From: Candidatus Pelearchaeum maunauluense | Lineage (GTDB): Archaea > Thermoproteota > Nitrososphaeria_A > Caldarchaeales > Caldarchaeaceae | Direction: 5' to 3' | Assembly: GCA_030059675.1 (NCBI GenBank) | Contig: JANVYQ010000003.1 | Span: 35,547 to 99,546, forward strand | DNA length: 64,000 nucleotides | In this document: one piece after another, positions 21,852 through 46,071 of the stretch | Layout: each line of letters opens with the position of its first letter | How positions within the stretch are numbered: the stretch's first letter is position 1 | Made by a program: the position numbers and the translations under genes | The notes under the pieces: generated by a model | The model's database searches: none | What the model was told of the DNA's origin: nothing | What the model saw: only the letters and a program-made list of their open reading frames with translations

Positions 21852-21861
21852 TGTGCATAAA

Positions 21862-22482: not shown

Positions 22483-22565
22483 CGGCTAGCGGATTCAAAA
22501 ATATAATCTTAAAACGATTAACCGTACCAGTTCGGTAATTTTTATAACCTTCATTAACAACAACT

Positions 22566-23291
22566 ATGATGAAGATGGCCGGGCGCGTCTTCGAGGTCAA
22601 TATTTTACTCGACCTAGACTCGCTGCCGGACCCTGAAAAGAAATGTACAGCTCTCAAGTTGGTTAAAGATGGTAAGGGTCCGCTTGAGTGTCTTAATCCG
22701 ATGTCTGATGTTCGTCATTTTATTCGGCTTAAGGATGGTCAGATTACTATTGGAACCCAATCGCCTGATTCCTGTCCATTCTATAAGATATACTCGTCTC
22801 TACACATACATGTGGTCAAATGCAGCGTTTTTCATAATCATAGTCTAGCCACTATAATATGTACGGAGAGCGCGTTGGATGGTTTTTATAAGAGGCTGGA
22901 GGAGCTTGGCGCCAATTATAGGTTAGTTTCGGTCAGACAGTTATCAACCGCTGCTCAGCGTAAGCAGAAAATGACTGCTAACCAGATGTTCGCGCTCTTT
23001 ACAGCGCATAGCTTGGGCTATTTTGAGAGCCCATCAAAGGCAAGCATTAGAGATGTAGCTACCGTTCTTGATAAATCGCCCTCAACCGTGTCTGAGCTCA
23101 TTAAGAAGGGTGTGAAAAACTTGTTGGATATAATTAAGGAGAGAAAAGACTTTAAGGATCTACTAAATCTCGCTATATTTCCTCGTACTTCATTCTTATT
23201 GGTTGGCTGTCCAAAAGTCAATAGTCATTTTAATTTAATACTATGCGCGTTCTACTGTGCTATGACTATTCCGCACATGTTCGGTTTATGA
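22566..23291 (+). CDS. Putative regulator with C-terminal HTH_10 (Bat/DmsR-type) helix-turn-helix
   Basis: MTANQMFALFTAHSLGYFESPSKASIRDVATVLDKSPSTVSELIKKG. Confidence 0.4.
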   Translation: MMKMAGRVFEVNILLDLDSLPDPEKKCTALKLVKDGKGPLECLNPMSDVRHFIRLKDGQITIGTQSPDSCPFYKIYSSLHIHVVKCSVFHNHSLATIICTESALDGFYKRLEELGANYRLVSVRQLSTAAQRKQKMTANQMFALFTAHSLGYFESPSKASIRDVATVLDKSPSTVSELIKKGVKNLLDIIKERKDFKDLLNLAIFPRTSFLLVGCPKVNSHFNLILCAFYCAMTIPHMFGL

Positions 23292-23333
23292 ATTTAAGAG
23301 AGCTTCTAAACGGCTAACCGCTGGTCGAAACAA

Positions 23334-23999
23334 ATGGCTGCGCCAGCTCCATCCGCGGAAATATGGAATTCTCTATTCATGATGTATGTAACATCTGCAG
23401 TTGTAATCTCCGCAGTAGTGTTGGCAATTCTAGGATATTTCGTACTACGTTATAGACAGCCATCAAGCAGTCTAGCCGATGGTGGGCAGGACGAACCTGA
23501 GTTTAGAATAGGCGCGGAGCCCACTAGGGGTAGTGCTAAAGTTGCCATAGCTCTCAGCGTAATATTGGGGCTGCTCTTCGTTGGCCTCACGGCATCAACC
23601 TTCAGCGCTATGGAGTTCATGGAAGAAATACCCGAAGACAACCCAAATGCTCTGCACATTAAGGTAACAGCATTCCAGTGGGGATGGCAATTCACCTACC
23701 CCAACGGCCGGACAATAACAGGCGAGCTCAGAGTGCCCGTAAATACTCCTATAGTATTGGAGATAACCAGCAGGGATGTCTTTCATACATTCGCTATAGC
23801 TGCGTTCAAGGTTAAGAAAGACGCCATACCAGACAGAATTAACTTCGCATGGTTCGAGGCTAAAGAAGCAGGAGAATATAGGATACAATGCTACGAGCTC
23901 TGTGGAACAGGGCACGCCAAGATGATAGCAACTCTCCTAGCGATGGAGACGGAGCAGTTTGAAGCGTGGTATGGTAAGTTGAGTGAGGAGAAGGGGTGA
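23334..23999 (+). CDS. Heme-copper oxidase subunit II (CuA-type)
   Basis: FQWGWQFTYPNG, ITSRDVFHTF, CYELCGTGHAKM CuA ligands. Confidence 0.85.
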   Translation: MAAPAPSAEIWNSLFMMYVTSAVVISAVVLAILGYFVLRYRQPSSSLADGGQDEPEFRIGAEPTRGSAKVAIALSVILGLLFVGLTASTFSAMEFMEEIPEDNPNALHIKVTAFQWGWQFTYPNGRTITGELRVPVNTPIVLEITSRDVFHTFAIAAFKVKKDAIPDRINFAWFEAKEAGEYRIQCYELCGTGHAKMIATLLAMETEQFEAWYGKLSEEKG

Positions 24000-24005
24000 T
24001 TATGG

Positions 24006-26459
24006 GTGGCTCATGCAAACAATAAACCAAACCCACTTGTAGTCTGGCTTTTTACAACAAACCATAAAAACGTGGGAATACTCTACCTAGTGACATCCCT
24101 CTACTTCCTTGTGGTTGCTGGTATTCTAGCTCTCACGTTTAGGATGCAGCTGAGCGCGCCCAACATGGTATTCCTCGCAGCAGACTCTTACAACCAAGCG
24201 GTTACGCTGCATGGTCTCTTCATGCTTCTCTGGGTAACCACGCCGCTGGCCGCTGCTTTTGCCAACTACGTGGTTCCAATCCAGATAGGCGCTAAGGATA
24301 TGGCGTTCCCGCGCCTTAACGCGCTGAGCTACTGGCTCTACCTAGCAAGCGGCATAGTTGCGCTAAGCAGCTTCTTCGCCCCAGGAGGCACGGCTGACTG
24401 GGGATGGACAACATACGCGCCTCTAAACACGCTACAGTATAGCCCGCAAGCAGGAGGCTCGCTAATGGGCCTAGCAATACTGCTCCTACTCAGCTCCACG
24501 ATAGTAGCGACCTCAAACTTCATGGTAACAATATTCAGGCTACGCGCCCCTGGTATGAAGCTCTCATACCTCCCACTATTCTCAATATTCTGGCTGGTAA
24601 CCCAGTTCCTGCTACTATGGGCTTTCCCAGCCTTCGCCGCCCCCCTGCTCATGCTGGTCTCCGATAGGGTCCTTGGAACAGTATTCTTCACAGCAGCGGA
24701 AGGAGGAGCGCTACTCTGGGACCACCTACTATGGTTCTTCGGCCACCCAGAGGTTTACATACTCGTCCTACCAGGCCTGGCTATAGCTGGAGACGTCCTA
24801 GCAGTGTTTAGCCGAAGGCAGCTCTATGCCAAGAAAGTCATAATCATAGCAGTAAGCGTAGCCGCGTTCCTAAGCTACGTCGTATGGGTACATCACATGT
24901 TCATGACTGGCATACACCCAGGGCTAAGGGAGGTCTTCAACATAACGACAGAACTAATCTCAATACCCTTCGGAGCTATAATGCTCTCATATATCCTAAC
25001 CCTCTTTGGAGGCAGGATAAGGGCGACGACACCTTTCCTATTCGCTCTAGGCTCTGTGATACTCTTCATAATAGGTGGGGCCTCAGGCGTCTTCAACTCT
25101 TCGGTAGCCCTTGACGTGGGGATGAGAGGAACCTTCTGGGTGGTAGGGCACTTTCACTACACCATAGTGGGCGGCGGGATAACTGGCCTGATAGCTGGAC
25201 TATACTACTGGTGGCCGAAGATGACTGGAAGAATGTTCAGCGAAAAACTGGGCAAACTACACTTCGCAATCTACATGATAGGCTTCAACCTACTCTACTT
25301 CCCGATGCACCTACTCTACGACATGCCGAGAAGAATATTCTTCTACGACGCCACAACGGGCTGGGGCCCGATAAACATGCTCATAACCATGGGCTCCTGG
25401 ATCTTCGCGTCATCATTCATAATACTGTTCATAAACCTCATCAACAGCCTTCGCCATGGCCCTAAGGTGGGCGACGACCCGTGGGGAGGTGCCAACTACT
25501 CGCTTGAGTGGAACGTTCCTTCTCCGCCTCCAGAGTTCAACTTCCCGAAAGGCGTTCCGGTGATAACCGCGCAGGGCCTTGAGTTTAGGCAGCCTTGGGA
25601 GATTAAGATGGGCATAACAACAACTGGCGGCCAGCAGCTATACGGCACCACAGCCCTCCCTACAAACGGCGGGAGCCATGTGGCTGAGCACGGCGAGGAG
25701 CATGGGCCGCATCTAAGCCCATGGCCCTTCATACTCTCAATAGGTGTTGCACTAACCATGATCGGCCTGGTGTTTGGAGTGCCTCTACTGCTGCAGGGAG
25801 TGGTGATATTCATCGCCTCCATAGTGGGCTGGGCTTGGGAGGATGTTAAAGAGAAGTTCCACGTAGCTATTGAAGCGCTGGGCGAGAAGTGGCCATTTGA
25901 CAGGGTTGAGAACGTGCCCCTAGGGATGTGGTTCTTCCTCTTCGGTGAGGTGGCGCTCTTCGGCCCGCTCTTCGCAGCCTACTTCTTCGTCCGCGCCAAC
26001 AGCGCCTACACAGGCTTCGCGTGGCCTCTGCCAGGTCAGATACATAGCACAGTCATGGGAGCAATCTCCACAATAATCCTACTAACAAGCGGCCTCGCAA
26101 CATCACTGGCGCTAGTGGCGATAAAGAACAACAACCAGCGCGGCCTCAAGGCAGGGCTCCTCACAGCATTCATACTAGGCCTAGCCGTGCTGTTCATAGA
26201 GGGATTCCAGTGGGCTGAGCTCTTCGCAGAGGGCTACACGTTCGGAACAGACATAGCGGCCAGCATCTACTACCTAATAACGGGCATCCACGGTGCGCAT
26301 ATACTGGCTGGCCTGCTGATAATAATCTACCTACTGGCAAAAGCCTACAAGGGAGGCTACAACGCGGAGAAGCACATGGGCGTATATGCATTCGCCATAT
26401 ACTGGGGCTTCGTGGTGGGCGTATGGCTATTCACGTTCCCACTATTCTACCTAATATGA
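24006..26459 (+). CDS. Heme-copper oxidase subunit I fused to subunit III (SoxM/AoxB-like)
   Basis: GHPEVYILVLPGLA, 817 aa, C-terminal ...HGAHILAGLLII... subunit-III-like block. Confidence 0.9.
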   Translation: MAHANNKPNPLVVWLFTTNHKNVGILYLVTSLYFLVVAGILALTFRMQLSAPNMVFLAADSYNQAVTLHGLFMLLWVTTPLAAAFANYVVPIQIGAKDMAFPRLNALSYWLYLASGIVALSSFFAPGGTADWGWTTYAPLNTLQYSPQAGGSLMGLAILLLLSSTIVATSNFMVTIFRLRAPGMKLSYLPLFSIFWLVTQFLLLWAFPAFAAPLLMLVSDRVLGTVFFTAAEGGALLWDHLLWFFGHPEVYILVLPGLAIAGDVLAVFSRRQLYAKKVIIIAVSVAAFLSYVVWVHHMFMTGIHPGLREVFNITTELISIPFGAIMLSYILTLFGGRIRATTPFLFALGSVILFIIGGASGVFNSSVALDVGMRGTFWVVGHFHYTIVGGGITGLIAGLYYWWPKMTGRMFSEKLGKLHFAIYMIGFNLLYFPMHLLYDMPRRIFFYDATTGWGPINMLITMGSWIFASSFIILFINLINSLRHGPKVGDDPWGGANYSLEWNVPSPPPEFNFPKGVPVITAQGLEFRQPWEIKMGITTTGGQQLYGTTALPTNGGSHVAEHGEEHGPHLSPWPFILSIGVALTMIGLVFGVPLLLQGVVIFIASIVGWAWEDVKEKFHVAIEALGEKWPFDRVENVPLGMWFFLFGEVALFGPLFAAYFFVRANSAYTGFAWPLPGQIHSTVMGAISTIILLTSGLATSLALVAIKNNNQRGLKAGLLTAFILGLAVLFIEGFQWAELFAEGYTFGTDIAASIYYLITGIHGAHILAGLLIIIYLLAKAYKGGYNAEKHMGVYAFAIYWGFVVGVWLFTFPLFYLI

Positions 26460-26470
26460 GGTGGTGAAAG

Positions 26471-26764
26471 ATGCGAGAAGAATGGCAGCTTGTAGCGATT
26501 TACACAGTAATAATAGCGGCGCTGGTTGCTGAGGTCATAGTGGGCTCCAGCTGGATGACGCTGGGGCAGACAGCCCTGATAGGTGTGCTGGTGATAGCAA
26601 AGCTACAGGCGGCTCTAGTCTTCACATTCTTCATGTTCGGCAAATACGGCACACGCTCAGTGGCTTTAATAATGCTCATATCAGTAAGCACGCTGCTCCC
26701 ACTATTCCTGGCATTCGCCTTCTCCATAGAGTTCCCACCACATGCGGTTGCTGGAGGACGCTGA
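26471..26764 (+). CDS. Small three-TM oxidase subunit (subunit IV-like)
   Basis: 97 aa, hydrophobic, position within the oxidase operon. Confidence 0.4.
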   Translation: MREEWQLVAIYTVIIAALVAEVIVGSSWMTLGQTALIGVLVIAKLQAALVFTFFMFGKYGTRSVALIMLISVSTLLPLFLAFAFSIEFPPHAVAGGR

Positions 26765-26775
26765 GGAGGTGATGC

Positions 26776-27240
26776 GTGTTGGCTGAGCAAGAGTCCCGCG
26801 CCCACATAAACGCTGCGATAATAGCGGGCGTCGTAGGCCTGGTGTGGCTGATTGGAATCTGGGTAGTCCTAGTCTTCCCGCCGCAGGTGGAGGCAGCCGC
26901 GCCAGGGGGAGAGCAGCAAATCCTCACAGGAACCTCGATAAACCTAGTCATGCAGGAATGGGGCTTCAACCAGAAGAGGGGAGCGCCGATAATAGAGATA
27001 AAAGCAGGAACCGAAGTAACCTTCACAGTCGTAAACCAGGGACGAAACCTCCACTCATTCCAGATACTAACACCAGACGGAGAGCATGTAGCTGGCTGGA
27101 CCAAGGACGAGGTTATAGATGTGGGAGAGACACGGACATTAACAGTAGTCATAGACGAGCCAGGCGAGTATATCTACATATGCCCAGTAGAAGGGCATGA
27201 AGAAGAGGGCATGAAGGGAATCCTTAGAGTTGTCGGCTAG
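26776..27240 (+). CDS. Second membrane-anchored cupredoxin (sulfocyanin-like)
   Basis: TM anchor; NLHSF ... YIYICPVEGHEEEGMKG Cu-ligand pattern. Confidence 0.6.
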   Translation: MLAEQESRAHINAAIIAGVVGLVWLIGIWVVLVFPPQVEAAAPGGEQQILTGTSINLVMQEWGFNQKRGAPIIEIKAGTEVTFTVVNQGRNLHSFQILTPDGEHVAGWTKDEVIDVGETRTLTVVIDEPGEYIYICPVEGHEEEGMKGILRVVG

Positions 27241-27320
27241 AGAGGCCCAGTTTAAATCTCCCATTCCTATTTTCGTGATAGACTTTAACTATTATCATGT
27301 TGTTATATTTAGCCTGATAA

Positions 27321-28439
27321 GTGATGGAGAAGAATGCTGAAGCTGTCTCATGCGTTGAGGCTCGCTTACAAAACTATGACGCGCTGGCAATTCTAGGGCT
27401 CACCCGCAGGGAGGCAGAGCTTTATCTCTCCCTACTCCAGCTCGGCGAGGCTTCTGCCCACACGCTGATGAGGATACTCAACATCCAACAACCACACCTA
27501 TATAGCCTCCTAACAAACCTCAAGAAAAAAGGCCTAATAGGATGGAAGCATGGTAGGCCAAAGATATACTTCGTGAAAAACCCAGCCCACGTCATGGAGG
27601 AGAAGATAGAATCCATAATGAGCTCGCTGGATAGTCTCAAAAATACCCTAAAAGAAATCTACACAAGCTCCCAGAAGTGTTGTGAGCATCCTGTCGTGGA
27701 GGTTGTTAGAGAGCCGCGGAACATCTTCAAACTAATCAAGAGCGTCATTAGTAAAACCTCGCATGAGCTCTGCATACTTATGAGCGGTAATTATATGGCG
27801 CGGCTTGTGGATGATGTTGTCGAAAAAGCGGGCTTAGGTGTTCGAGTCTATGCGCTAACCTTTCCAGATCTTCGGCAAGGGTTGATTAACGCCCTCATGG
27901 AGGGGGGCGTCCGCGAGCTACGGAGCACCGCCCTAGGAAGGTTTATGCTAGTCTCCTCAGACTGCTCCCAGACGATATACATCCCCAGGTCAACCATGAG
28001 CGGCGGAGAAAGACAGAAATACGCATACTTCTTCACAGGAATAGAGATGCCAGCCTTCTTCACCCACTGCTTCTACTCTGAGTGGTGTAAATCAAGTCAA
28101 GTATTCTCCCAAGCAATACCCTTAGAAAACAGACTCTTCTCCCATAGAATGTTCGTATATGAATTAACCAGCTTAAAGTCTATTGGTAGTCAGGAGATAG
28201 TTGTTCGTGTAACGGGCGTAGATACGCGGACGGGTAGGGGGCTTACTGTGAGGGGTAGAGTTGAGGATGTATTTACGGAGGACGCGAATACCGTTTATTT
28301 CACAATAAGGACATCAGAAGGAAAGCGTTATAGTGTCGGTGGGTATGATGCAATAACCGAGGATATCGAGGCTGAGAATATAGTCATAGAATCCATAACG
28401 CCGTCACGCCAGTCATCAAAGCTCCTTGACATAGCTTAA
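27321..28439 (+). CDS. TrmB-family transcriptional regulator with extended C-terminal domain
   Basis: LGLTRREAELYLSLLQLGEASAHTLMRILNIQQPHLYSLLTNLKKKGLI. Confidence 0.55.
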   Translation: MMEKNAEAVSCVEARLQNYDALAILGLTRREAELYLSLLQLGEASAHTLMRILNIQQPHLYSLLTNLKKKGLIGWKHGRPKIYFVKNPAHVMEEKIESIMSSLDSLKNTLKEIYTSSQKCCEHPVVEVVREPRNIFKLIKSVISKTSHELCILMSGNYMARLVDDVVEKAGLGVRVYALTFPDLRQGLINALMEGGVRELRSTALGRFMLVSSDCSQTIYIPRSTMSGGERQKYAYFFTGIEMPAFFTHCFYSEWCKSSQVFSQAIPLENRLFSHRMFVYELTSLKSIGSQEIVVRVTGVDTRTGRGLTVRGRVEDVFTEDANTVYFTIRTSEGKRYSVGGYDAITEDIEAENIVIESITPSRQSSKLLDIA

Positions 28440-28514
28440 TATTCCTAACTACAACAAATCAAGTAGTATGTAATGTATTGTATAATTTATTGTCATTTAA
28501 GCACGTAGTCGTAG

Positions 28515-29970
28515 GTGGATGTTTTGAATCCTCTAGACATATCCTACATGGGGCCATATTACCCAAGCTTTGCGCCAGAGTGGAGCAGCAGCGGAATATA
28601 CGGCCTCCATTACTATAAAGGGGCTCTTCTCTACGCCGTTGCGTTTGACGCGCTCACTATAATATACCATAAAGGAAGAGTCAAGGAGTACAGATATGAG
28701 CTTATTGGAGGACCCCCGCGAAGTGGAGGAGACACATACGGCGCAGCCGTGGGGGTTGATGATACGTTATTCTTTGGAGGCTGGGTACACGCCCCCGCAT
28801 ATTATGACCCGCCAAGAGAAAGATAACTTTCCATCACAAATATTCACATTTACACAGAATAGACCTTAATGATATGGAGATTAAGCTTCTATACAAGGAT
28901 GGGCCTGGGCGGGAAGATACCTGGAGCGCCGAGGTCTCAGACATACTATACAATCCCCTAGACGATTCCATAATACTCTTCAGAGGTGATGGACATTTTG
29001 GACATGGAGTATATTCCCTAGACAGGGGAGGAAAGACAGTCATGCGGCTCTCATCAATTCCAGTACTGAGGGGGACCTTCTTCCTTGACCACTTAATCGC
29101 TGGGATATTCTGTCCCCAGGCTTTACAGTTCCCTCCCCCTCACTCCAGCTATTCAATATAGAAAACAAAGAAACAAAAATTACCAGGTACAATATCGCAG
29201 CGTCTGCTGTTGGAAATCCTTCTCAGGGTAAGTCTATAGTAGCTGTAGCACCTCTCAGAAACCAGCTCTACGCCTTCGTTGATGATGGCGTCTTCGTCGG
29301 CGATCCGACTGGAACATACAACTGGACTCCCGATAGTGTTTTTGTGAGGCTCTTCGCGACGGGGCATGGTGTTGCGCGTTATGCTCCCTGTAGGAGGGTT
29401 AAAGTAGTGAGCTTTGGTGGTGGGTTGCTGGTTCCCATAACGAAATCTGATATAGAAAACTCTCCAGTCCCAGCTACTTCGGCTTCAGGAATACTACTCT
29501 TCATGGATGAATCATGTGTAAAGATAATACACGCTAGCGGGAGGATAACGGGATTGGCCGTAACGCCAGATTCCATACAGCTGGCAACCGTGACGTCAGA
29601 AAATACGCATACCTCCACACGGATAGATTACTGCTTTAAACAACTGCTCAAGCTACCCCATGACATCATAAACAAGCATCCACCACCCCTATCATTAATC
29701 CTAGCTAAACGCCTCACAGCAGGCGAGCAATTAGGTGGGATACCTCTGAATGGATACCATAAAAAACGCGTAGTCACAACTTCAAATAACGACAACATAT
29801 TGATGGTAAGGGAATACGATACATCAGCACCAGAAAATAGCGCAGACGAAGAAAAATACACGCTAAAGAAGGGCCGTAACGAGATAGACTTGGATGGATT
29901 CGGGAGAATCGTCTCGTTCAAGTTTGAGAAAAACGACCAAGCAGGACACCTCTATCTTTACCTCACATAA
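28515..29970 (+). pseudogene. Hypothetical gene, about 480 codons, spread over three reading frames (frame changes near 28808-28826 and 29089-29161). Lower GC than its surroundings
   Basis: Each ORF is continued stop-free in a neighbouring frame across the junction; an 85-codon open stretch precedes the 29344 start. Confidence 0.35.
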
Positions 29971-30064
29971 TTAATTATACTACCTAAAGTTAATATTAAA
30001 AGACTATATCCCACCAGCCTAACATTTAGGATGAACATATCATGAAGAGAGAAAATCTGCACAA

Positions 30065-31397
30065 ATGAAATCTACAACTGCTGGACTGTTGGCGGTTGTC
30101 CTCCTAGTTATGGGGATTATCGGTGGATATTTCGCTGGTGTATCAACGGCTCCCGTTGCTGAGACTGTGACTGTAACACAAACAGTCGAAGGCGGTGGTA
30201 TGGCTACAACCATAACAAGAACCGTAACGAAAACAGTCCAAGCGCCAGGTGAGGTTCACGAGCTTACAGTCTACGCCCTATGGAGCGGCGTAGAGGAGGA
30301 AAACTTCGGGATGGCTCTAGGCGCCTTCTCAATGATGACAGGCATAAAGATAAACTATGTATCTCAGCCAGAGCTTCGGGATGTGTAACAACCCAACTAG
30401 CTGCGGGAACTTCTGAGGTTGACTCAATAATCGCGCCCTGGCCCACTTGGATAAAGGACGAGCTGGGAGCGGCTGGTCTATTGGAAGATGTTACGGATAT
30501 ACTTAATAAGGATGGCAGGGACAAGTCCCCATCAGCATATCTGAGTGTAGTTTCTGAGAACGGAAAGTTCTATGCCGTGCCCTTTAAGGCCTGGGCTAAG
30601 CCAGGCTTCTGGTATAATAAGCAGGTTTTTGACGAGTTAGGGCTTAATCCACCCACAACATGGGACGAGTTTATGAATGTTCTAGACACACTCAAGGCTG
30701 GTGGTATAACACCCATAGCCAGCGGTGACGGTGTAGGCTGGCCACTCTCAGACCTCGTGGAGGCGTTCATAATAGGCCTCGGAGGCCCAGAGCTTCAGTT
30801 GAAGCTGATAAACCACGAAATAGCCTGGACAGACCCGCAAGTGAAGGAGATATTCGGAAGAATACAACAGTTGCTGAAGGGCGGGTACTTCGACGAGGCG
30901 CGCGAATGGACGATACAAATAGACCGACTAATGGAGAGGAAGGTTGGTATATACTTCATGGGTAACTGGATAAACCTGATGCTCCAAGAGAAAGGCTACA
31001 GGCCTGGGATAGATTATGATGTCTTCGCCTTCCCAGGGACTGGTGGGATAGTTGCCGGCGGCGACTGGGCTTTCATACCGAAGTTTGCCAAGAATAAGGA
31101 AGCTGCTAAGAAGCTTCTGGAATTCCTAGCAGGCGCTGAGGCTCAGACGATTATGTGAAGCTTAAGGGATTCCTAGCGACCAATAAGGACGTTCCTAAAG
31201 AGGCTTACGGTGCAGCTGACAGGAATATCGTGAATATGCTGGGAACCCTAGCCGTGCTTCCAGACCTGGACGACTCAACACCATCCGAGTTCCAGCGGCT
31301 CTTCCGGGACAAGCTTAAAGAGCTGTGGGCAAACCCAGACGCGTTAGACAGCATATTGGAGGAGCTTGAGCAAAAAGCCTCTGAGGTCATCGGGTAA
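30065..31397 (+). pseudogene. CUT1-type sugar ABC substrate-binding protein (MalE-like, TM anchor plus Thr-rich linker) broken by two frameshifts (about 30385 and about 31150)
   Basis: Three consecutive ORFs in different frames jointly cover a full family-1 SBP (...GIKINYVSQPELRDV / VTTQLAAGTSEVD... / ...AEAQTI / VKLKGFLATNKDV...). Confidence 0.65.
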
Positions 31398-31402
31398 AAG
31401 AA

Positions 31403-32143
31403 GTGAAGACTAAAGGAACAACCATAATTATTTTTCTCCTCCCATCTATACTATTCCTAAGCCTATTCGTAATATATCCGATGCTGTATAACTTCTACAT
31501 AAGTCTCTTCAAGTGGAAAGTGGTCAGAATAGAATCATTTATCGGCCTGGATAACTATGTCAAGCTACTTAACAATCCCCAATTCCATAGGGCGTTCATA
31601 AACAACCTAATCTGGATACTTATTCACGTACCCACAACAACAGTTTTAGGACTTCTCCTAGCTGTTCTCCTCAAGCGCGTCAAGGGCTCTTACATAATCA
31701 AGTCCGTAATCTTCCTAGGTATGGTCATACCCCAGATAGTTGTCGGCATAATGCTGCTCTTCATGTTCGACTCGGATGCACTGGATTCGCGGTAGTAGGT
31801 TATTCCGCTGGGCTTGAAGGAATACCCAAAGACCTATACGACGCCGCGGTTGATGGAGCTTCTCCTTTCAAAACATTCTGGCACATAACTATACCCATGT
31901 TGAGGCCCGCAACAATAGTTGTGGTTACTATGACCCTAATCTGGGTTCTAAAGATATTCGATATAGTTTATGTAGCCACGCGCGGAGGGGCCTGGAGGAG
32001 CTACAAACGTAATGGCTTATATGATGTATGAGCAGGGTTTCGTCTTCTATAAGTGGGGGGTAGCTGCCGCTATAGCGACGATATTCACCGTGATAATACT
32101 GGTGTTCTCAATATATCTGGTGCGCTCTATGGTGAGAAGATGA
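31403..32143 (+). pseudogene. MalF/UgpA-type ABC permease broken by two frameshifts (about 31780; GGGG run about 31986)
   Basis: Conserved segments MLLFMF / SAGLEGIPKDLYDAAVDGASPFKTFWHITIPMLRPATIVVV...VATRGG / GGATNVMAYMMYEQGF... lie in three frames. Confidence 0.65.
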
Positions 32144-32967
32144 GACTCTCGTCGATATTGATACATGTGCTCGCGTGGGCTATAGCCTCGCTGTGGATTA
32201 TACCGTTCATGGGGGTTTTATGGCCTCTATAAGGCCGTTAAGCGAGATACTAAGCGGCTGGTGGAACTTTCAAAACATGAACATAACACCAGATAACTAC
32301 ATCAACGCATGGACCAACGAGCAGGTTCCAATAAGTAGGCACATGATTAACTCAATCCTAATAGCCATACCATCTACGATAATCCCAATATTCACTGCTT
32401 CGCTTGCAGCATACTGTTTCGCCCGTTTCAGCTTCCCTTTAAAAACATGCTATTCCTAACAATAGTCTTATTACAAACACTCCCACAGCAATCGGTGGTT
32501 ATCCACTCTTCATCATGCTGAGTCAAATGGGACTCCTTAACACGCTGCTCAGCCTAGTCATAGTGCATACGGCCTTCGCAGCTCCATGGACTATTTTCTT
32601 CTTCCGCAACTTCTTCGCCACACTGCCTGCTGAGGTTGAGGAGCAGGCACGCGTGGATGGAGCTTCAGATTTCAAGATATATTATAAGATAGTGCTGCCC
32701 ATGTCCCTGCCTGCATTATCCTCCGTCGCCGCGCTACAGTTCGTATGGGTTTGGAATGATTTCTTCTTCGCCTTAATATTCCTATCGGGAGCGCGTGAGC
32801 TACAGCCCCTTACCGTTGCTATATCCCTACTTAGGGGGAGATACTTCGTGGATTGGGGGCTGCTTACCGCAGCATCTGTTCTAACTATGGCAATCCCTCT
32901 ACTGCTCTACGCGCTATTACAACGATACCTCATGAGGGGAATAGTCGTTGGCGCGGTGAAAGGATAA
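32140..32967 (+). pseudogene. MalG/UgpE-type ABC permease broken by three frameshifts (GGGGG run 32213-32217, AAAAA run about 32440, about 32500)
   Basis: MRLSSILIHVLAWAIASLWIIPFMGV / MASIRPLSEIL...FARFSFPLK / MLFLTIVLLQTLPQQSVVI / PLFIMLSQMGLLNT...EAA-loop EVEEQARVDGAS. Confidence 0.65.
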
Positions 32968-32969
32968 TA

Positions 32970-34063
32970 TTATACTATAAGCTCCTCGGTCTTAGCGTCA
33001 AAGATATGCACCTTATCACGTCTAAATCCAACCCAGACACGCATACCCGCATGGAACTCGGTAGTAGGCTGTATGACCGCCTTAATAATATCATCACCAA
33101 GCTTAAGGTCAATAATCATATTAGAGCCCATGGGCTCAACCACGTAAAACTCTGACTCAAACACAGAATCATCACCCTTATGCGTGGAGAGTAGTATATC
33201 CTCTGGTCTAATTCCTATGTATATTTCGCTGCCAGTTCTGTCTCTTAAGATGCTGCTAATGTCCTTAGCGTCGTATAGGAAGTATCCAGCGTCAAGCATT
33301 ACCTCGCCGTTCTTCTCTGTTACTGAAGCCTTAATCATATTCATGGGCGGGCTTCCTATAAAAACACCTACAAACGTGTTGGCTGGCTTATTGTATATCT
33401 CAATAGGCACATCATACTGCTGTATCTTGCCACGATTCATGACAGCTAGCCTGTCAGCCATCGCCATAGCCTCAGCCTGGTCATGGGTTACGTATACGGT
33501 GGTTATCTTGAGGTCTTTCTGAAGCCGCTTTAGCTCAGCTCTCATATAGACGCGGAGCTTTGCGTCTAAGTTGCTCAGCGGCTCATCCATTAAGAAAGCC
33601 TTAGGCTGCCGCACTATCGCTCTTCCCAGCGCCACACGCTACTGCTCGCCGCCGCTGAGCTGTTTCGGCCTTCTGTTCAAGAGATGCTGTATATTGAGGA
33701 GACGCGCAGCCTTCTTGAAGCGGCGGTCTATCTCATTCTTAGGGAGCTTCCGCATCCTTAATGGGAAAGCCATATTATCATAAACCGTCATGTGGGGTAT
33801 AGGGCGTAGTTTTGAAAGACCATAGCTATATCACGGTCTTTTGGTGGGAGACTATTAACGACATTCCCATCAATGTATATGTATCCCTCGTCGGGGGTTT
33901 CAAGACCAGCTATACATCTAAGCGTAGTAGTCTTTCCGCATCCAGAGGGGCCAAGTAAAACTACAAACTCCCCATCATCAATATTCAAGCTAACTCCATT
34001 TACTGCGAGTGTTTTATCAAACCGCTTAACCAGATTTTCTATACGTATATCACTCATAACCAA
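32970..34063 (-). pseudogene. MalK/UgpC-type ABC ATPase with one frameshift (CCCC run about 33793-33796) and an in-frame TAG at 33639-33641 that replaces the conserved Gln of the ABC signature LSGGQQQRV
   Basis: Walker [10 protein letters not shown] (33788..34063 ORF), ...LSGGEQ-TAG-RVALGRAIV..., Walker B LMDEPLSNLD, C-terminal TOBE-like domain. Confidence 0.7.
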
Positions 34064-34111
34064 CTATGTTTATCATTGTTTGGATTAAAAATTTTATGGC
34101 TAGAACAAGTC

Positions 34112-35047
34112 TTATCTAATCATCTCTTTTATTACCGTATTCCGTAGAAGGCCTATTTTCTCTATTTCAGCCTCAACTATATCGCCGTGCTTTAGATATG
34201 GCTTCCCCGCTGCTGCAACTCCCGCTGGTGTCCCAGTAGCTATAATATCGCCTGGCTCAAGAGTCATACCATCAGACACATATTCTACCAGCTGGCCTAT
34301 CTTGAAAATCATCTCCTCAGTATTCCCTTCCTGCCTCACCTCTCCATTAACTCTTAGAGTAAGTTTTAGAGGATATGGAGAACCAATCTCATCCTTAGTT
34401 ACTAGATACGGCCCGCATGGGGCGGCGGAGTCAAGGCTCTTACCAAGAATCCAGTTCATGCCGTATGAGCTTTTCTTCTCAGGCCAGCCAGGTGGAAACT
34501 GTTTATCTCTAAAACTAACGTCATTAAACACCATATAGCCAGCTATGTACTCATCAACATCATTAGAGCTTATGTATTTGCCGCGCTTACCTATCACGAC
34601 AGCCAGCTCCACCTCATAATCAACCTTCGTGGAAGACTTTGGTATGATTATATTCTCCCCATGACCTATGAGGGCGTTGTTATATTTTCCAAAGAAATAC
34701 GGCGCCTCAGGCACCTCAGAGCGTAGCTCCCTAGTATGTGAATAGTAGTTAGCCGCTACGCAGAGTATCTTCTGCGGGTCGGGTATAGGTGCTTTGAACC
34801 CGACCTCCTCATAACTGCAGTAGAGTGCGCGTTGGTCATTCATTTTGGGTGCTTCCATAATCAGCTTCATGATTGTATTATAAGCTTCATCGCCTTTGCA
34901 GAGTATCTCCTTAACTGAGAGAAGATAACCAGGCACAGTATCGCCGCCAATTATCTCGGTATATGCCTTGGATAAGTCTAATATCCCATATTCGGTGAGC
35001 GCTCCCACTTTGATTGAACCATGAATAGTGATTGTTGCCAGCTTCAT
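34112..35047 (-). CDS. Fumarylacetoacetate hydrolase (FAH) family protein
   Basis: 311 aa; conserved ...KILCVAANY...E.ELAVVIG...DV.....GYMVFNDVS.R... pattern. Confidence 0.8.
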   Translation of the reverse strand: MKLATITIHGSIKVGALTEYGILDLSKAYTEIIGGDTVPGYLLSVKEILCKGDEAYNTIMKLIMEAPKMNDQRALYCSYEEVGFKAPIPDPQKILCVAANYYSHTRELRSEVPEAPYFFGKYNNALIGHGENIIIPKSSTKVDYEVELAVVIGKRGKYISSNDVDEYIAGYMVFNDVSFRDKQFPPGWPEKKSSYGMNWILGKSLDSAAPCGPYLVTKDEIGSPYPLKLTLRVNGEVRQEGNTEEMIFKIGQLVEYVSDGMTLEPGDIIATGTPAGVAAAGKPYLKHGDIVEAEIEKIGLLRNTVIKEMIR

Positions 35048-35124
35048 CTCTGCAACATTTCTTGCAAAACCTTTTTCTTAATTAAGATAAAGGTTTAAGC
35101 ACTGGCTCTTATCATAACGATGAT

Positions 35125-35634
35125 ATGAATAACGTAAATCTGGAGAAGATAAAAGAGTTCGTCCAAGCGGTGGAGAAGGACCCGACAGAGGCCAAGAAAC
35201 ACAAAATCGTTAATGGTAGCTGGGTGTTTGAGGAGGGAAAGCCGCAGTTTACCGCTATGCTAGAGTATCAAAATGGGAAGGTATCGCTGAACTGTGAGAT
35301 GCCGCCGTTCGCTGGCGGATGGGGAACAAGCCCAGACCCAATACAATACTGCCTCTACGGCCTAGCTGCGTGCTTCGCGGTAACATTCGCGGCAACAGCA
35401 AGCTCTGAGGGGATACAGCTAAAAAAGCTAGAAGTAACCGCGGAAAACTGGATAGATCTGAAAAAACAAATAGGCCTATCCAAAGACCCGATAATTGAGC
35501 GTATCAAGCTAACGGTGCGCGCAGAAGGCGCTTCGCGCGAAGTTTTGGAAAGATTGTTGAAGATATCTGAGGAGCGTTGTCCTGGTGTTGAGTGCGTTAC
35601 GCGGAGTATTCCATTTGAGACCGTGTTAGGCTAA
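35125..35634 (+). CDS. OsmC/Ohr-family protein
   Basis: ...GGWGTSPDPIQYCLYGLAACF...; 169 aa. Confidence 0.7.
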   Translation: MNNVNLEKIKEFVQAVEKDPTEAKKHKIVNGSWVFEEGKPQFTAMLEYQNGKVSLNCEMPPFAGGWGTSPDPIQYCLYGLAACFAVTFAATASSEGIQLKKLEVTAENWIDLKKQIGLSKDPIIERIKLTVRAEGASREVLERLLKISEERCPGVECVTRSIPFETVLG

Positions 35635-35662
35635 TCTTCCTTATAACGTCGTAGTTTATTAT

Positions 35663-36064
35663 TTATTTTTCCAGTTGTTTTATTGCCTCTAAAGCTATTT
35701 CTTCGTCTTCCTCTGAGGTTGCCCCGCTCACGCCTACAGCGCCTATTGTTTCATCGCCGCGTTTTATGGGAACGCCACCACGGCCGAAGAGCATACGCCC
35801 CCCGCTCATCACGGATATGCCAGCCCAGAATGCAGGGTTTTCCTGTATGCGCTGCTGAAATTCGCCCGTTCTTCTCCTAAAGATTGCCGACGTTGTTGCT
35901 TTCCCCCACGCTATTTGGGGTGATGCAGCTATAGCGCCGTCCATCCTTGCCAGAAGTATGAGCTCTCCATGCGCATTTACGACAGCTATAGAAACCTTAA
36001 CACCCATAGACTCAGCCTTCCTTATACCTGCTTCGACAATCTGCTTAGCCTGCTCCAGATTCAA
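35663..36064 (-). CDS. GlcG/HbpS-like (DUF336, possible heme-binding) protein
   Basis: VSIAVVNAHGELILLARMDGA...AWGKATTSA...GGVPI family pattern. Confidence 0.7.
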   Translation of the reverse strand: MNLEQAKQIVEAGIRKAESMGVKVSIAVVNAHGELILLARMDGAIAASPQIAWGKATTSAIFRRRTGEFQQRIQENPAFWAGISVMSGGRMLFGRGGVPIKRGDETIGAVGVSGATSEEDEEIALEAIKQLEK

Positions 36065-36072
36065 ACCCAGTA

Positions 36073-36585
36073 CTACCTCCTCTCGTACTCACTATAATGA
36101 TGTTGTTCTATGCTTTGTGCGTGTATTGGTCTGAATGGCTCTAGTCTGCGTAGCCACGAATATACTAGATACCCTGCGATTACCGTGATGAGTTGGCCTC
36201 CAACCGCTGCCATTAACGCCTCGCTTAGCAACGCGCCTGTTACTGTAGAGATTAGATATGCTGTCCATATCCCTGTGAGAACCGCGTATATCAGAGCTCC
36301 CAGCAATACGCTCTGACGGCGCATAAGGTATATGGCCAGCAGGCCGGCTAATGCGAAGATCGTTGTGAGGAGGTCCATAGGTCCAAACGGTGAGGCGCTG
36401 TTGGTCATGAACTGGCCGAATAGGAATCCCAGCAGCGCTGGCACGCCGAAGAGAGCTATGAGCGGGCTTACTATTTCGCCAGGCTTGATGAAAAGTCCCG
36501 CGATCTCAATCCTTCCTATGGCTGCTGTTCCAGCTACGTAGAAGCCAGCCATCAGCACAAAAACGGCAAAATCGCTATACCTCAT
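36073..36585 (-). CDS. QueT/ECF-S-like small membrane protein, paralog of 7297..7812
   Basis: Shared motifs with the first copy (IKPGEIVSPLIALFGVPALLGFLFGQFMTNSASPFGPMDLL). Confidence 0.4.
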   Translation of the reverse strand: MRYSDFAVFVLMAGFYVAGTAAIGRIEIAGLFIKPGEIVSPLIALFGVPALLGFLFGQFMTNSASPFGPMDLLTTIFALAGLLAIYLMRRQSVLLGALIYAVLTGIWTAYLISTVTGALLSEALMAAVGGQLITVIAGYLVYSWLRRLEPFRPIHAQSIEQHHYSEYERR

Positions 36586-36603
36586 CTAGCCATTCACCTC
36601 AAG

Positions 36604-37440
36604 CTACCATAGGAAGGCGCCTTCCCAAATTATGAGGAATAGCATGAGCCATATGAGGTCAACGAAGTTCCAGTAGAGGCTTACTGCATCAAGGAATCCA
36701 TGGCTCTTGGGTTTGAAGTGTCCCAGCTTGGCCCTCCCTGCGGCTATTGCGAGGACTATTATTCCCCCTACAACGTGGGCTCCGTGAACGCCTGTTAGTA
36801 TGTAGAAGCTGGAGCCGTAGAACCCGCTTGCTGGCGTGAAGCCAAGCTCGTAAATCAGGCGAGGCCACTCAATACCGAGCTTAAGCCCCATGAACACTAT
36901 ACCCAAAACCATAGTAGCTAGAATGCCCGCTAAAACGCCTCGGTTATTCCCCTTCTTAGCAGACCATACGGCCAGTTCTATGGTAACGCTGCTGGTTAGT
37001 AGTATTATCGTCTGGATTCGTGGGATGAAGTTTTCTAGGTGAGGAGCTCCTGGCGGAGGCCAGACAGGGAAGGTGGAGCGTATAAGGAAATAAGCTCCAA
37101 ATGCTGAAGCGAAGAACGCCGTCTCAGTGAGGAGGAAGAGCGCGGTTGGGAAGCCGACGCTCCCTACCTTCTCAGGCTCGGCGGGTATTGGCGTCTTCTG
37201 AAGCCTCTCAAAGAAGCTGGAAATCACGTGCTGCCACTGCCTAACCTCAAACACCACAAAAACCACTAACAAAGCGATGAAGTAGAAGACTAGAATTAAG
37301 CCTACTGTTGTGTATATCCCTTTAAGCAGGAGAATTAGGCCGGCTATCAGCGCTATGGTGTTCAGCCCAACGATAGCAGGCCAGATGCTCCCCTCCTCAT
37401 GTTCTTCATGAGCCGCGTGAGCGTTAGTTTCTGCGCTCAT
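36604..37440 (-). CDS. Stand-alone heme-copper oxidase subunit III homolog
   Basis: GVHGAHVVGG...YWNFVDLIWLMLFLIIW subunit-III signature. Confidence 0.7.
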   Translation of the reverse strand: MSAETNAHAAHEEHEEGSIWPAIVGLNTIALIAGLILLLKGIYTTVGLILVFYFIALLVVFVVFEVRQWQHVISSFFERLQKTPIPAEPEKVGSVGFPTALFLLTETAFFASAFGAYFLIRSTFPVWPPPGAPHLENFIPRIQTIILLTSSVTIELAVWSAKKGNNRGVLAGILATMVLGIVFMGLKLGIEWPRLIYELGFTPASGFYGSSFYILTGVHGAHVVGGIIVLAIAAGRAKLGHFKPKSHGFLDAVSLYWNFVDLIWLMLFLIIWEGAFLW

Positions 37441-37491
37441 GATAGTAACAGCTCCTGCAAACCAGCCTAAAAAGCATATTATTAAGTTTCG

Positions 37492-38490
37492 TTATCCTAC
37501 TCTCCCAACAGCTCTAACTGCCTTCCTTATACAGCCCACGCGCGGGCTAAATACCAGCGTAAAAACGATATTCGCCAAAGAGACTGTGAAGAGGAACAAC
37601 GAGGCTACGCTCTCTGGATTTCTTATCATCATGAGCAACGCGGCAGATAGCGGAGCCAGCATAGACGCGAGAGGGCCAGCTAGATACATCATCGCATAAC
37701 CAAGCCCGCCCGCCGCGCTGGAATCTCTATCTATGCGCAGGCCTAAAACGATGGGGAGAAGCTTAGCTCTACGCGGGAGTATTACAACAATATTGGACAA
37801 ACCCACATAATAAAACTTGAATCTCACACCAGTTAAGAGCCCTACTAATAAATGCGCCAGGTCATGCGTAAAGAACCATAGCAAAAAGAAAACCCCAAAG
37901 GAGATGATTAGGTCTATGACTGGAATATTAGTAGGCAATAGTGCGAGGAGCCAGAGCCCTACCGCGATTCCTATAGCGGATAGGATGGAGCCGCTCAAAA
38001 GGCTCATAGTAAAAACGTACCCAAACTCTGGGAGTCTAGCCTCACCCGTTATGAGAGACCGTAAAACGGCATTACGATAATCAAACACGCGCCCAATCAT
38101 CCTTATTGCAAGAGAATCAAATAACGGGCCCTGGAATGACTGTATTTCAATAATATCCTCCAACGTGGTAAAGCCATGATTTTCATGGCTTAGTATGTGT
38201 GTATGAGACCACTTCTTGAAAGGCGAGTCTATCGCAACTAGTTCAATCTTATTTGGCCGCTCATACCCAATTACACGAAACTTAACGCGAAATGGTTGGT
38301 GGAGTATGTGTAGCTTTAGTTCTATATCGGCTCCTAAATACAGTGTAGAGGGAGCATCTATAACTTTAACGCGCATCTCAGGCGGATAGAGCTTAGCCAT
38401 ATTATCGGGCGTCGTGATAATGTTAAACACGCGCTCCTGCTCGGCCTCTATCCGAGTCTTAACTGCCAGCCTAGCCATACCATCTCCCAC
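37492..38490 (-). CDS. Fusion of an N-terminal SRPBCC (START/polyketide-cyclase-like) domain to a C-terminal multi-TM domain
   Basis: About 150 aa soluble N-terminus followed by four or five hydrophobic helices; no specific family recognised. Confidence 0.35.
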   Translation of the reverse strand: MGDGMARLAVKTRIEAEQERVFNIITTPDNMAKLYPPEMRVKVIDAPSTLYLGADIELKLHILHQPFRVKFRVIGYERPNKIELVAIDSPFKKWSHTHILSHENHGFTTLEDIIEIQSFQGPLFDSLAIRMIGRVFDYRNAVLRSLITGEARLPEFGYVFTMSLLSGSILSAIGIAVGLWLLALLPTNIPVIDLIISFGVFFLLWFFTHDLAHLLVGLLTGVRFKFYYVGLSNIVVILPRRAKLLPIVLGLRIDRDSSAAGGLGYAMMYLAGPLASMLAPLSAALLMMIRNPESVASLFLFTVSLANIVFTLVFSPRVGCIRKAVRAVGRVG

Positions 38491-38551
38491 AAGAGAGGCC
38501 CATCTTTATATTGAATCAACAGACGCAAACCATGGAAGAAGGAGAGGAAAT

Positions 38552-40177
38552 AAAATGGCGACCCAATGCAACCAACAGCTAAGCCTCCACTGGCTTGAAA
38601 AGCTCGTCTTGCTCGCTCTAAACGAGCTTAATAGGCCAGCCATCTACGAAGAGCTGGCTCAAAAAGCCGTAGAGCTGGTAAATAGAGCCCAGACGGCACT
38701 AAGCCGCGAGTCCTTCACAACAACAGCACGGAAGCCATCTGCCATAGCAAAAGCATGTGGATGGCTACAACAGAAACAACTGATAGAACAGTATGAACAT
38801 GGAGAAACTACTAGGATAATATCGCTGGGCAGGGAGGGATTAAGATACGCGTCAGAGGGTCTGCCAGAGAGGAGGCTGGTTAATTTCCTGATAGAGAGAG
38901 GCGGAGAAGCCACGGTGGATGAAGTATCAAGTGCCGTCAACGATTATACGATTGCCCTAAACTGGGCTAAACGTAACGGCTGGATAGCATTTGATAAGAA
39001 AAACTCGGAAACCTATGTGAGGATTGTATCTGAGCCTCCCAGCATGACGGTAGCAGAAGAGCTGCTCCAACGCTTAATGCTTGAGGACACTATACCCATG
39101 GATTCTCTACCCGAAGAGATGAAGAACATAGTTGAGCAAATGATAACTAGGCAGGATGTAATTCGGATAGTTGAAAAACGGGAACGTAGAGTAGGACTGA
39201 CGTCAAAAGGGAAAGAACTCGCCTCGCAGCTTGCAGCGGTAAAGCTTGAAGACATACTGAGTGAGATAACACAGCTCACGCCTGAGATACTGAAGACGGG
39301 AAAATGGAGGCATCTAACCCTAAGCAAATACGACATAACCGCGGCGGTGCCACCAGTATTCGCAGCTAAACGACATCCACTCGTAGAACTAATACGCTTA
39401 GTCAAACAAGTCTATGTGGAGATGGGCTTTGAAGAAATACAAGGCCCAATCGTAGAGCTTGCCTTTTGGAATTTTGACGCCCTATTCCAGCCGCAAGACC
39501 ATCCAGCACGCGAGATGCAAGACACTTTCTACGTTGATTTAGAGGAAAAAGGAGAAATTCCCAGAGAGTATGTGGATGAAGTAAAGAAGGTTCATGAAAA
39601 CGGTGGAAGAACAGGCTCTAAAGGTTGGCGCTATAATTGGAGTGAAGACGAGGCGCGGAGGCTCGTGCTAAGAACGCATACAACAGCTACAACAATTAGA
39701 CATTTGGCAGAAGTTAAAAAACCACCAATAAAAGTCTTCTCTGTAGATAGGATATATAGAAATGAGAAAGTAGATTGGAAACACCTAGCGGAATTTCACC
39801 AGATAGAAGGTATAGTTATGGAGAAGGGAGCTAACTTCAGGCAGCTTATGGGAATAATAAAAGAATTTTATTCTAGGCTGGGGTTGCGCGAGGTTAGGTT
39901 TAGGCCCAGCTATTTCCCATACACCGAGCCATCAGCGGAGGTTGAGGTTTTCCTAGGTGGCAAGTGGCTTGAGCTGGGTGGTATGGGTGTGTTCAGGCCA
40001 GAAACCACCGCCCCATTCGGAGTCAAGTATCCAGTTCTGGCATGGGGGCTTGGGCTTGAAAGACTAGCCATGGCTATCTACGGAGTTGAGGATATAAGAA
40101 CCTTCAGCAGAAACGACCTCGCATGGCTTAGACGCACCTCACCACTAACCCCATACCGCGTCGCGGGAAGAATCTAA
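38552..40177 (+). CDS. pheS: Phenylalanyl-tRNA synthetase alpha subunit (archaeal type); start taken at MATQCNQQLSL...
   Basis: Class II motifs, e.g. FRPSYFPYTEPSAEVEVF, GMGVFRPE; the upstream in-frame extension to 38414 overlaps the neighbouring gene. Confidence 0.85.
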   Translation, partial: KMATQCNQQLSLHWLEKLVLLALNELNRPAIYEELAQKAVELVNRAQTALSRESFTTTARKPSAIAKACGWLQQKQLIEQYEHGETTRIISLGREGLRYASEGLPERRLVNFLIERGGEATVDEVSSAVNDYTIALNWAKRNGWIAFDKKNSETYVRIVSEPPSMTVAEELLQRLMLEDTIPMDSLPEEMKNIVEQMITRQDVIRIVEKRERRVGLTSKGKELASQLAAVKLEDILSEITQLTPEILKTGKWRHLTLSKYDITAAVPPVFAAKRHPLVELIRLVKQVYVEMGFEEIQGPIVELAFWNFDALFQPQDHPAREMQDTFYVDLEEKGEIPREYVDEVKKVHENGGRTGSKGWRYNWSEDEARRLVLRTHTTATTIRHLAEVKKPPIKVFSVDRIYRNEKVDWKHLAEFHQIEGIVMEKGANFRQLMGIIKEFYSRLGLREVRFRPSYFPYTEPSAEVEVFLGGKWLELGGMGVFRPETTAPFGVKYPVLAWGLGLERLAMAIYGVEDIRTFSRNDLAWLRRTSPLTPYRVAGRI

Positions 40178-40190
40178 GAAGGGTGATAAG

Positions 40191-41864: not shown

Positions 41865-41890
41865 GAATAACTAGTGAAGTAGATATAGCT

Positions 41891-41970
41891 GCCCCGCTAC
41901 CCGCCTTAAGCTCCACCGAGACACGGTGCACCACCCGTCAATGAGGGTGGAGTGTTGGTGGCGGGGCACA
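41891..41970 (+). ncRNA. Candidate H/ACA-like guide sRNA / structured RNA: 11-bp GC-rich lower stem, asymmetric internal loop, 7-bp upper stem, apical GA-rich loop, ACA triplet immediately 3' of the stem
   Basis: GCCCCGCTACC pairs with GGTGGCGGGGC; CTCCACC pairs with GGTGGAG; ACA at 41968-41970. It is not a tRNA (no T-arm, no U8). Confidence 0.3.
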
Positions 41971-42039
41971 TACCAACTCTCACGTTGGAAAAGTTAAAAA
42001 TTGTTCCTCATGCGCAATTTAGGTAAAAGGTGCTTATGG

Positions 42040-43134: not shown

Positions 43135-43320
43135 AGCTTTCCAATGGCCGAGGGGTTTAAAATACATCCAACTAAAGTGATAAAGTATGCGCCTTTACCT
43201 AAGCTAATCACCACACAGTGATAACAAAACAATAATTAACCCCGAATAGATTTAATAGTTGTAGGGTAGGGGTAGTGTTTCTTTTGGAGTCAAAACATCT
43301 AGAACGAGTGGAACAGAATC

Positions 43321-45960: not shown

Positions 45961-46071
45961 AATAGGAAATACCGCTAAATCATATTTTAGGTTTTTGAAT
46001 TTAATCCAGCTTCTCAAGGATTAATAATTAGCTTGCTTCTCTGGCCGACGACTAGTGGGCGGTGAAGCTGT

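Follow-up and report, generated by a model that had tools for sequence, protein, structure and literature searches.

Why do the genes of an archaeal sugar transporter whose proteins still look conserved fall apart into short reading frames? The locus lies in a stretch of 64,000 nucleotides (the window), which is part of a 202,821-bp contig of the metagenome-assembled genome (MAG) 'Pelearchaeum maunauluense', an uncultured member of the Caldarchaeales (formerly Aigarchaeota) from a Hawaiian fumarole. It holds the genes for a CUT1-type (TC 3.A.1.1) ATP-binding cassette (ABC) importer: a substrate-binding protein (SBP), two permeases and an ATPase. An earlier note on this DNA had described positions 30065-34063 as a complete four-gene operon turned into a recent multi-hit pseudo-operon. 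Our comparison with intact orthologues supported this description, as lesions derived in the window lineage are confined to one cassette. The decay of the four transporter genes was borne out, but the broken unit is larger: it comprises five genes, including a DUF2139 gene and the upstream start of the SBP gene. Real and recent pseudogenisation is most probably the explanation, including a possible mixing of lesions from several decaying haplotypes in the consensus.

Results

Relatives of the locus were gathered by a scan of species-representative genomes and by contig look-ups. The sister species WAQC01 sp015520425 (GCA_015520425.1, GCA_015522085.1), from deep-sea vents, is represented by three independent assemblies (L001, L040 and L041), which share 99.5-99.7% identity among themselves and about 90% nucleotide identity with the window. 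Sequences labelled Ca. Caldiarchaeum subterraneum (L002, L125-L128), about 81% identical to the window, were used as the outgroup. Genes were assigned from the listing of open reading frames (ORFs) with Pfam run on each ORF piece. Lesions were placed by base-level global alignment (BLAST/MAFFT) against L001 and L040 and polarised with the outgroup L125/L126. About 20 kb of flanks (20383-28500 and 34100-46589) were aligned as well, making about 26 kb in total with the cassette.

The ORFs at 28.5-34.1 kb are short and overlapping, and long ORFs fill the remaining window. By Pfam, the pieces represent in order DUF2139 (three pieces), SBP (three), permease 1 (three), permease 2 (three to four) and, on the opposite strand, the ATPase (three). 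The sister species and the outgroup carry a cassette of six genes in the same order, namely TrmB, DUF2139, SBP, two permeases and a convergent MalK-type ATPase. Each orthologue is a single uninterrupted ORF, with 367-371 aa for TrmB, 482-485 aa for DUF2139, 444-458 aa as called for SBP, 295 and 276 aa for the permeases and 362 aa for the ATPase; permease 1 was called at 280 aa in one outgroup assembly.

The first cassette gene encodes a TrmB-family sugar-responsive transcriptional regulator of 372 aa (27321..28439, + strand; Pfam TrmB and Regulator_TrmB, PF01978 and PF11495, E 3e-40) and is the only unbroken one in the window. It is collinear with the 371-aa orthologues in L001 and L002 without any frame-breaking indel, and the 3 bp that distinguish the window from the sister species at 27335 were deleted in the latter, with no change in the window. 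The following DUF2139 gene (28515..29970, + strand) is a pseudogene whose three ORF pieces match consecutive parts of PF09910. Single-base deletions at 28811 and at 29113, the latter in a C6 run, shift its frame from 0 to 2 and then to 1, with no additional in-frame stop.

The SBP pseudogene (30042..31397, + strand; orthologue 452 aa; PF01547 SBP_bac_1, E 3e-36 for a 292-aa fragment) carries 1-bp deletions at 30385 and 31155, which are the two frameshifts that had been proposed. With a further 1-bp deletion at 30052, the conserved upstream ATG (30042) no longer lies in frame. Two frameshifts had also been proposed for permease 1 (MalF-type; 31403..32143, + strand; orthologue 295 aa; PF00528 on both fragments). 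The count was right, but the first lesion is a deletion of 145 bp at 31779/31780 (48 codons and one base), by which residues from about 127 to 175 are lost and the frame is shifted; the second is a 1-bp insertion at 31986. The outgroup permease 1 is full-length across the site of the large deletion. A 3-bp deletion at 31842 is in frame and harmless.

Permease 2 (MalG-type; 32140..32967, + strand; orthologue 276 aa; PF00528, E 3e-17, on the C-terminal piece) contains three 1-bp deletions, at 32214, 32441 (A6 to A5) and 32503, again as claimed, and otherwise differs from its orthologue by four amino acids only. The MalK/MsmX-type ATPase gene (32970..34057, - strand, convergent with the permeases; orthologue 362 aa; ABC_tran, OB_MalK and TOBE_2) has one 1-bp deletion at 33794/5 (G5 to G4 on the + strand) and a TAG nonsense codon at 33636-33638 (- strand). 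On alignment to the intact orthologues, the tally of nine lesions within 30065-34063 was thus exact.

The position and origin of the TAG had to be corrected. It had been assigned to the conserved Gln of the LSGGQ signature and to a change from CAG. It actually lies at Gln140 (LSGGEQ[Q->*]RVALGRAI), two residues after the signature position, and the window, the sister species and the outgroup all have Glu as the fifth residue of the signature. Codon 140 is CAA in both the sister species and the outgroup. As CAA is therefore ancestral, two base changes were needed to reach TAG, and such a two-step change is no homopolymer artefact; the earlier note had also stated that the TAG cannot be one. After frame correction of the cassette genes, this TAG is the sole extra in-frame stop.

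All of the lesions are window-specific. At all 12 sites of frame-breaking indels and at the TAG, the outgroup has the same state as the sister species, and the absence of the lesions from the three sister assemblies and the outgroup means that they are derived in the window lineage. The window-derived indels in the cassette comprise 12 deletions versus 3 insertions, counting three non-coding changes: a 1-bp deletion at 32970 and two insertions upstream of DUF2139 that are described below. Most single-base events coincide with or adjoin a mononucleotide run, 2-6 bases long in one relative or more, and several have a substitution next to them. The earlier note had placed several shifts at G4-5/C4/A5 runs; at 9 of the 11 single-base coding indels, the sister or window sequence shows a run of at least 3 bases.

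All 12 frame-breaking indels fall within 5.5 kb, which is less than 10% of the coding sequence, and the indels of lengths other than multiples of three across the aligned flanks all fall between genes or right at a gene end. No second fragmented gene was found in the 64-kb window, whose remaining genes are ordinary and separate (thermosome, Alba, NuoA/H, ferredoxin and others), including an intact FAA-hydrolase gene downstream of the cassette. Errors spread evenly over the sequence cannot account for such clustering, whose edges coincide with those of a conserved functional cassette. The cassette is closely preceded by a fused gene for cytochrome oxidase subunits I+III (817 aa, 24006-26459), after which come a small 97-aa ORF and a cupredoxin gene; the oxidase gene is intact and collinear in the sister species.

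It had also been stated that every conserved motif is still recognisable. The proteins do still look conserved, but 48 codons of permease 1 are deleted. The conservation would follow from the loss being very recent, and the substitutions were examined in this respect. Between window and sister species, the five broken genes have pairwise ratios of non-synonymous to synonymous divergence (dN/dS) of 0.015-0.064, and four intact neighbours have 0.036-0.127. The low values of the broken genes indicate that most of their divergence accrued under purifying selection, and the fact that they are no higher than in the intact neighbours agrees with the claim of recent decay.

When the non-synonymous (N) and synonymous (S) changes were polarised by lineage, the broken genes showed 65 N / 171 S on the window branch versus 29 N / 179 S on the sister branch (Fisher p = 5e-4). 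The corresponding counts for control genes (ribonucleotide reductase, RNR, and tyrosyl-tRNA synthetase, TyrRS, both polarised with L129; and TrmB) were 38/126 versus 28/131, which is not significant. The N excess sits in DUF2139, SBP and permease 1. With the asymmetry of the controls subtracted, the cassette-specific excess is about 25 +/- 13 replacements over about 4100 non-synonymous sites. The resulting tau is about 0.006 substitutions per site. On the window branch, whose dS is about 0.2, this amounts to a few percent. It implies about 33 neutral substitutions versus 13 coding indels, a ratio of about 0.4. About one nonsense mutation is expected among 33 such substitutions, and one was observed. 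In Sulfolobus acidocaldarius, the genomic indel rate is 0.00053 versus 0.00011 for substitutions, and 84 of 95 indels are single-base (Drake 2009, PMC2688765); the ratio in the cassette lies between the mesophile and thermophile rates given there. These counts are compatible with genuine, very recent neutral decay, and they are too small to serve as proof. We infer that the loss is very recent and falls roughly within the final few percent of the period since the window lineage and its marine-vent sister species diverged.

Several observations weigh against real decay and have to be set beside this evidence. On the window branch alone, N/S is 0.38 for the broken genes versus 0.30 for the controls, which is not significant, so that the signal of relaxation is weak. 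No N excess is seen in permease 2 (2 N / 22 S, with three frameshifts) or in the ATPase (12/32 versus 8/24 in the sister). The indel to substitution ratio of about 0.4 is above the value of about 0.09 that was roughly counted by hand for the intergenic DNA of the flanks. The contig has a low k-mer coverage of 5.5x. Exact protein look-ups matched only the MAG contig or nothing, so the lesions are known from one assembly, and the 34-nt junction of the 145-bp deletion was absent from the JGI metagenome contigs. A protein-based scan of the JGI metagenomes returned relatives of at most 61% identity. Relaxed selection had been considered as a proof of real decay; as pairwise dN/dS is no higher than in the neighbours and the polarised excess is not significant against same-branch controls, it is taken as compatible with very recent loss and not as proof.

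The data source matters for the alternatives. The MAG (GCA_030059675.1, WGS JANVYQ000000000; Hawaiian sample 100086B) was assembled from trimmed paired reads with metaSPAdes, and the contig appears in the tables as NODE_43_length_202821_cov_5.535789 (PMC10547907). The Illumina NextSeq library details in the same paper refer to the Chilean samples only, and the platform for the Hawaiian MAG was presumably Illumina as well. The SPAdes k-mer coverage of the bin contigs seen is 5.5-6.5x, and that of the other Hawaiian MAG from the same sample is 24x. The type genome of a named species thus rests on thin read support.

First, the consensus could be a mosaic: the lesions would be real and sit on different haplotypes, the assembler would have joined the majority alleles, and no single cell would carry all 13. 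The MAG was indeed assembled from an environmental population, and the surplus of indels over excess substitutions would be eased if independent lineages had contributed. Every lesion must still be the locally dominant allele in this case, and at about 11x read depth the contig spans 202 kb through the locus, with no breaks or other marks of collapsed bubbles. We consider it quite unlikely.

Second, the genes could be intact in the organism, with the indels introduced by low-coverage short-read assembly. The coverage of 5.5x, the weak signal of relaxed selection, which is nil for permease 2 and the ATPase, and the location of most single-base coding indels at short runs would all fit such an artefact. 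Short-read metaSPAdes data rarely yield indel errors, however, if the sample was sequenced by Illumina as assumed. Illumina reads have a very low indel rate and far more substitution errors. Sequencing errors would then give far more substitutions than indels, and the opposite is seen. Errors would also be expected throughout a contig of equally low coverage, yet about 58 kb of the window and the aligned flanks are without a broken gene and the lesions end at the cassette boundaries. Base-calling error does not account for the 145-bp deletion, the 5-bp tandem duplication or the two-step change from CAA to TAG. An assembly artefact is therefore very unlikely. Homopolymer error of long reads was also considered and was rejected in view of the paired short reads and metaSPAdes assembly given in the methods (PMC10547907).

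Programmed recoding (ribosomal frameshifting, transcriptional slippage or stop read-through) that bridges the frames so that the proteins are still made, which the earlier note had named as a possible refutation, finds some encouragement in the lesions at short homopolymer runs and in the programmed -1 frameshifting known for fucA1 of the archaeon Saccharolobus solfataricus, but it can in practice be excluded: the 12 sites are all private to the window, with unbroken genes at each of them in the sister species and the outgroup, the contexts are heterogeneous with no common slippery motif and runs of at most 6 nt, +1 shifts would be needed at ten sites and a -1 shift at one, permease 1 physically lacks 48 codons, and TAG is an ordinary stop elsewhere in the window (e.g. 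41862-41864).

Real pseudogenisation therefore stays the favoured explanation, and we infer that the lesions are present in cells rather than introduced by assembly, with relaxed selection as their likely cause. The ancestor of the window lineage would have carried a working six-gene cassette. Selection on sugar import through this cassette would then have ceased in the window lineage, and the five non-regulatory genes would have gathered neutral mutations, mainly single-base deletions at short runs together with the 145-bp deletion and the nonsense codon, until none of the five could give a full-length protein. TrmB was kept intact, presumably through its regulation of other genes.

The non-coding parts of the cassette were compared in the same way. 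The TrmB-DUF2139 intergenic block (28440..28514, + strand; three-way alignment) is a putative promoter/operator and contains ...ACTACAACAATCAAGTAGTATGTAATGTATAATTTA.... This spacer is near-invariant across lineages that are about 81% identical overall, with ACTAC-N9-GTAGT followed by TGTATAATTTA. It is identical in the sister species and the outgroup, and the window alone has a 1-bp insertion (A) at 28456, between the inverted arms. A second change of the window, a 5-bp tandem duplication of TGTAT at 28474-28478, directly precedes a TATA-like element. Judged from these alignments, the spacer may be a promoter/operator that was likewise hit. A strict palindrome search for the TrmB operator TACTAC-N-GTAGTA gave no match, and the conserved block with 5-bp inverted arms remains. 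The DUF2139-SBP spacer (29971-30041) also holds a conserved block, TACTACCTAAAGTTA.

The DUF2139 family (PF09910) is an uncharacterised archaeal family, and our literature search found a single paper mentioning it. The structure model of an intact orthologue (P0260, predicted local distance difference test score (pLDDT) 92.5) shows a seven-bladed beta-propeller and a C-terminal beta-sandwich, with only generic propeller matches, and the invariant motifs include GGDTY and FGGW. DUF2139 stands within the cassette in three Caldarchaeales lineages. It also occurs about 1.2 kb downstream of homologous SBP-permease genes in two of six Thermococcus loci (MAGs), and it is stand-alone in Pyrococcus sp. 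ST04 and Staphylothermus. The loci considered for this family include L004 (13998-15434) and L007 (3781-4221).

Discussion

The features of a CUT1 transporter are all present: an SBP of PF01547, two PF00528 permeases with EAA-loop regions visible in their translations, and an ATPase with an OB/TOBE domain. As all four genes are interrupted and none encodes a full-length subunit, the locus is a relic rather than a working member of the family. The SBP has 95% amino-acid identity to its L001 orthologue, with an N-terminal membrane anchor and a Thr/Val-rich linker, and its counterparts in Thermococcus MAGs are 45-50% identical. The PDB sequence matches of the SBP orthologue are sugar-binding ABC proteins (5XPJ/5DVF, AcbH 3OO6 and 2B3B; E from about 1e-24 to 5e-29). 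The ATPase orthologue matches Pyrococcus horikoshii 2D62 (E 6e-122), Thermococcus litoralis MalK 1G29 (E 7e-120) and GlcV 1OXS (E 2e-69). Many distant permease 2 homologues in metagenomes (L045-L124) match the 276-aa protein over about 1160-1230 nt instead of about 830; these long matches could reflect an insertion or domain, or joined tblastn segments.

Among known systems, the trehalose/maltose (TM) cluster of T. litoralis and Pyrococcus furiosus (malE-malF-malG-treT-trmB-malK, regulated by TrmB) is a close parallel. In both, a TrmB-family regulator adjoins a CUT1 SBP, two permeases and a MalK ATPase with a C-terminal OB/TOBE domain, and one additional cytoplasmic gene is embedded. The cassette of the window differs in that the regulator comes first and the ATPase is convergent, the embedded gene is DUF2139 and not TreT, the trehalose/maltose-binding protein (TMBP) is not among the PDB matches of the SBP, and five of the six genes are inactivated. 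Generic CUT1 importers (K02027/K02025/K02026/K10112, e.g. GlcSTUV of S. solfataricus) share the four-component architecture, the Pfam families and the archaeal-type anchored SBP, whereas the genes in the window are not functional.

The TM cluster is known to have moved laterally. In a similar way, the cassette stands in a different genomic context in the outgroup, where (L125 1-18387, L126) it is surrounded by Hdr, DsrE, TusA and lipoate-ligase genes. Being found amid unrelated neighbours there, it behaves as a discrete unit. The outgroup cassette is 78-84% identical in nucleotides to that of the sister species, and for RNR and TyrRS (window 42040-45960; L129), which probably come from that outgroup population as well, the identity is only 71-72%. 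These values point to lateral exchange of the cassette within the Caldarchaeales, with the caveat that L125 and L129 are not established as one organism.

The mode of decay resembles that in Mycobacterium leprae, in host-restricted bacteria and in the split genes of S. solfataricus: multi-hit frameshifts, deletions and nonsense codons with a deletion bias, in genes that still align to intact orthologues. Unlike in those decaying genomes, the decay in the window is confined to one functional cassette, and it is very young, with dN/dS indistinguishable from that of intact genes. It is ordinary recent gene loss and a further example of a well-known phenomenon. A specialist would find nothing surprising in it; its interest is modest and lies mainly in a caveat for annotation and in a glimpse of mutation spectra and of gene loss linked to the niche.

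For an uncultured thermophile, the locus offers a small set of neutral mutations that can be dated. The cassette might even be read as a natural mutation-accumulation record of an uncultured thermophilic archaeon, with a spectrum of mainly single-base deletions and about one indel per 2-3 substitutions, although we regard this reading as rather unlikely. If true, it would extend to the Caldarchaeales the laboratory finding that thermophiles suppress substitutions far more than indels. In a stronger version, a locally raised indel rate, e.g. transcription-associated in a derepressed and useless operon, may have driven the fast multi-hit decay.

The annotation of this MAG is directly affected. 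The fragments of this locus appear in the published GhostKOALA table as Prodigal genes _74 to _86 of NODE_43, and several were separately assigned K02027, K02025, K02026 or K10112; the annotation tables give the fragments KEGG_TC 3.A.1.1, and pseudogenes are mentioned nowhere in the paper (PMC10547907). A search for an intact paralogue had been recommended. Among 1999 of the 2086 gene rows (96%), these four KEGG orthology (KO) terms are assigned only in the broken locus, with K02026 also a weak second-best match for the neighbouring gene _71, and K10111 was not found in those rows. With the CUT1 KOs restricted to the broken locus, the whole CUT1 capacity appears to be lost, and the broken importer is the only recognisable CUT1 system of the MAG. 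An inference of CUT1 sugar import by this organism is thus probably wrong, which calls for caution in metabolic predictions.

Other genes of the MAG may have had a similar fate. The aldehyde:ferredoxin oxidoreductase (AOR) gene (K03738), which lies outside the window, was called as three adjacent pieces (NODE_280 genes _48-_50; PMC10547907 Table S4) and adjoins a peptide ABC transporter ATPase and pepQ. The authors themselves called three of four AOR genes 'fragmented', and reported 2086 coding sequences (CDS) in 1.79 Mb (PMC10547907), a high gene count for the genome size. Given the split AOR and this count, further pseudogenes in the MAG are likely.

For the uncharacterised DUF2139 family, its decay together with the transporter and its linkage to homologous Thermococcus transporters provide a functional lead. 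For the organism, the terrestrial lineage of the fumarole appears to have lost, only just now, a sugar importer that is still intact in its sister species from deep-sea vents, and the importer loss together with the AOR fragmentation is a hint of a shift away from sugar heterotrophy.

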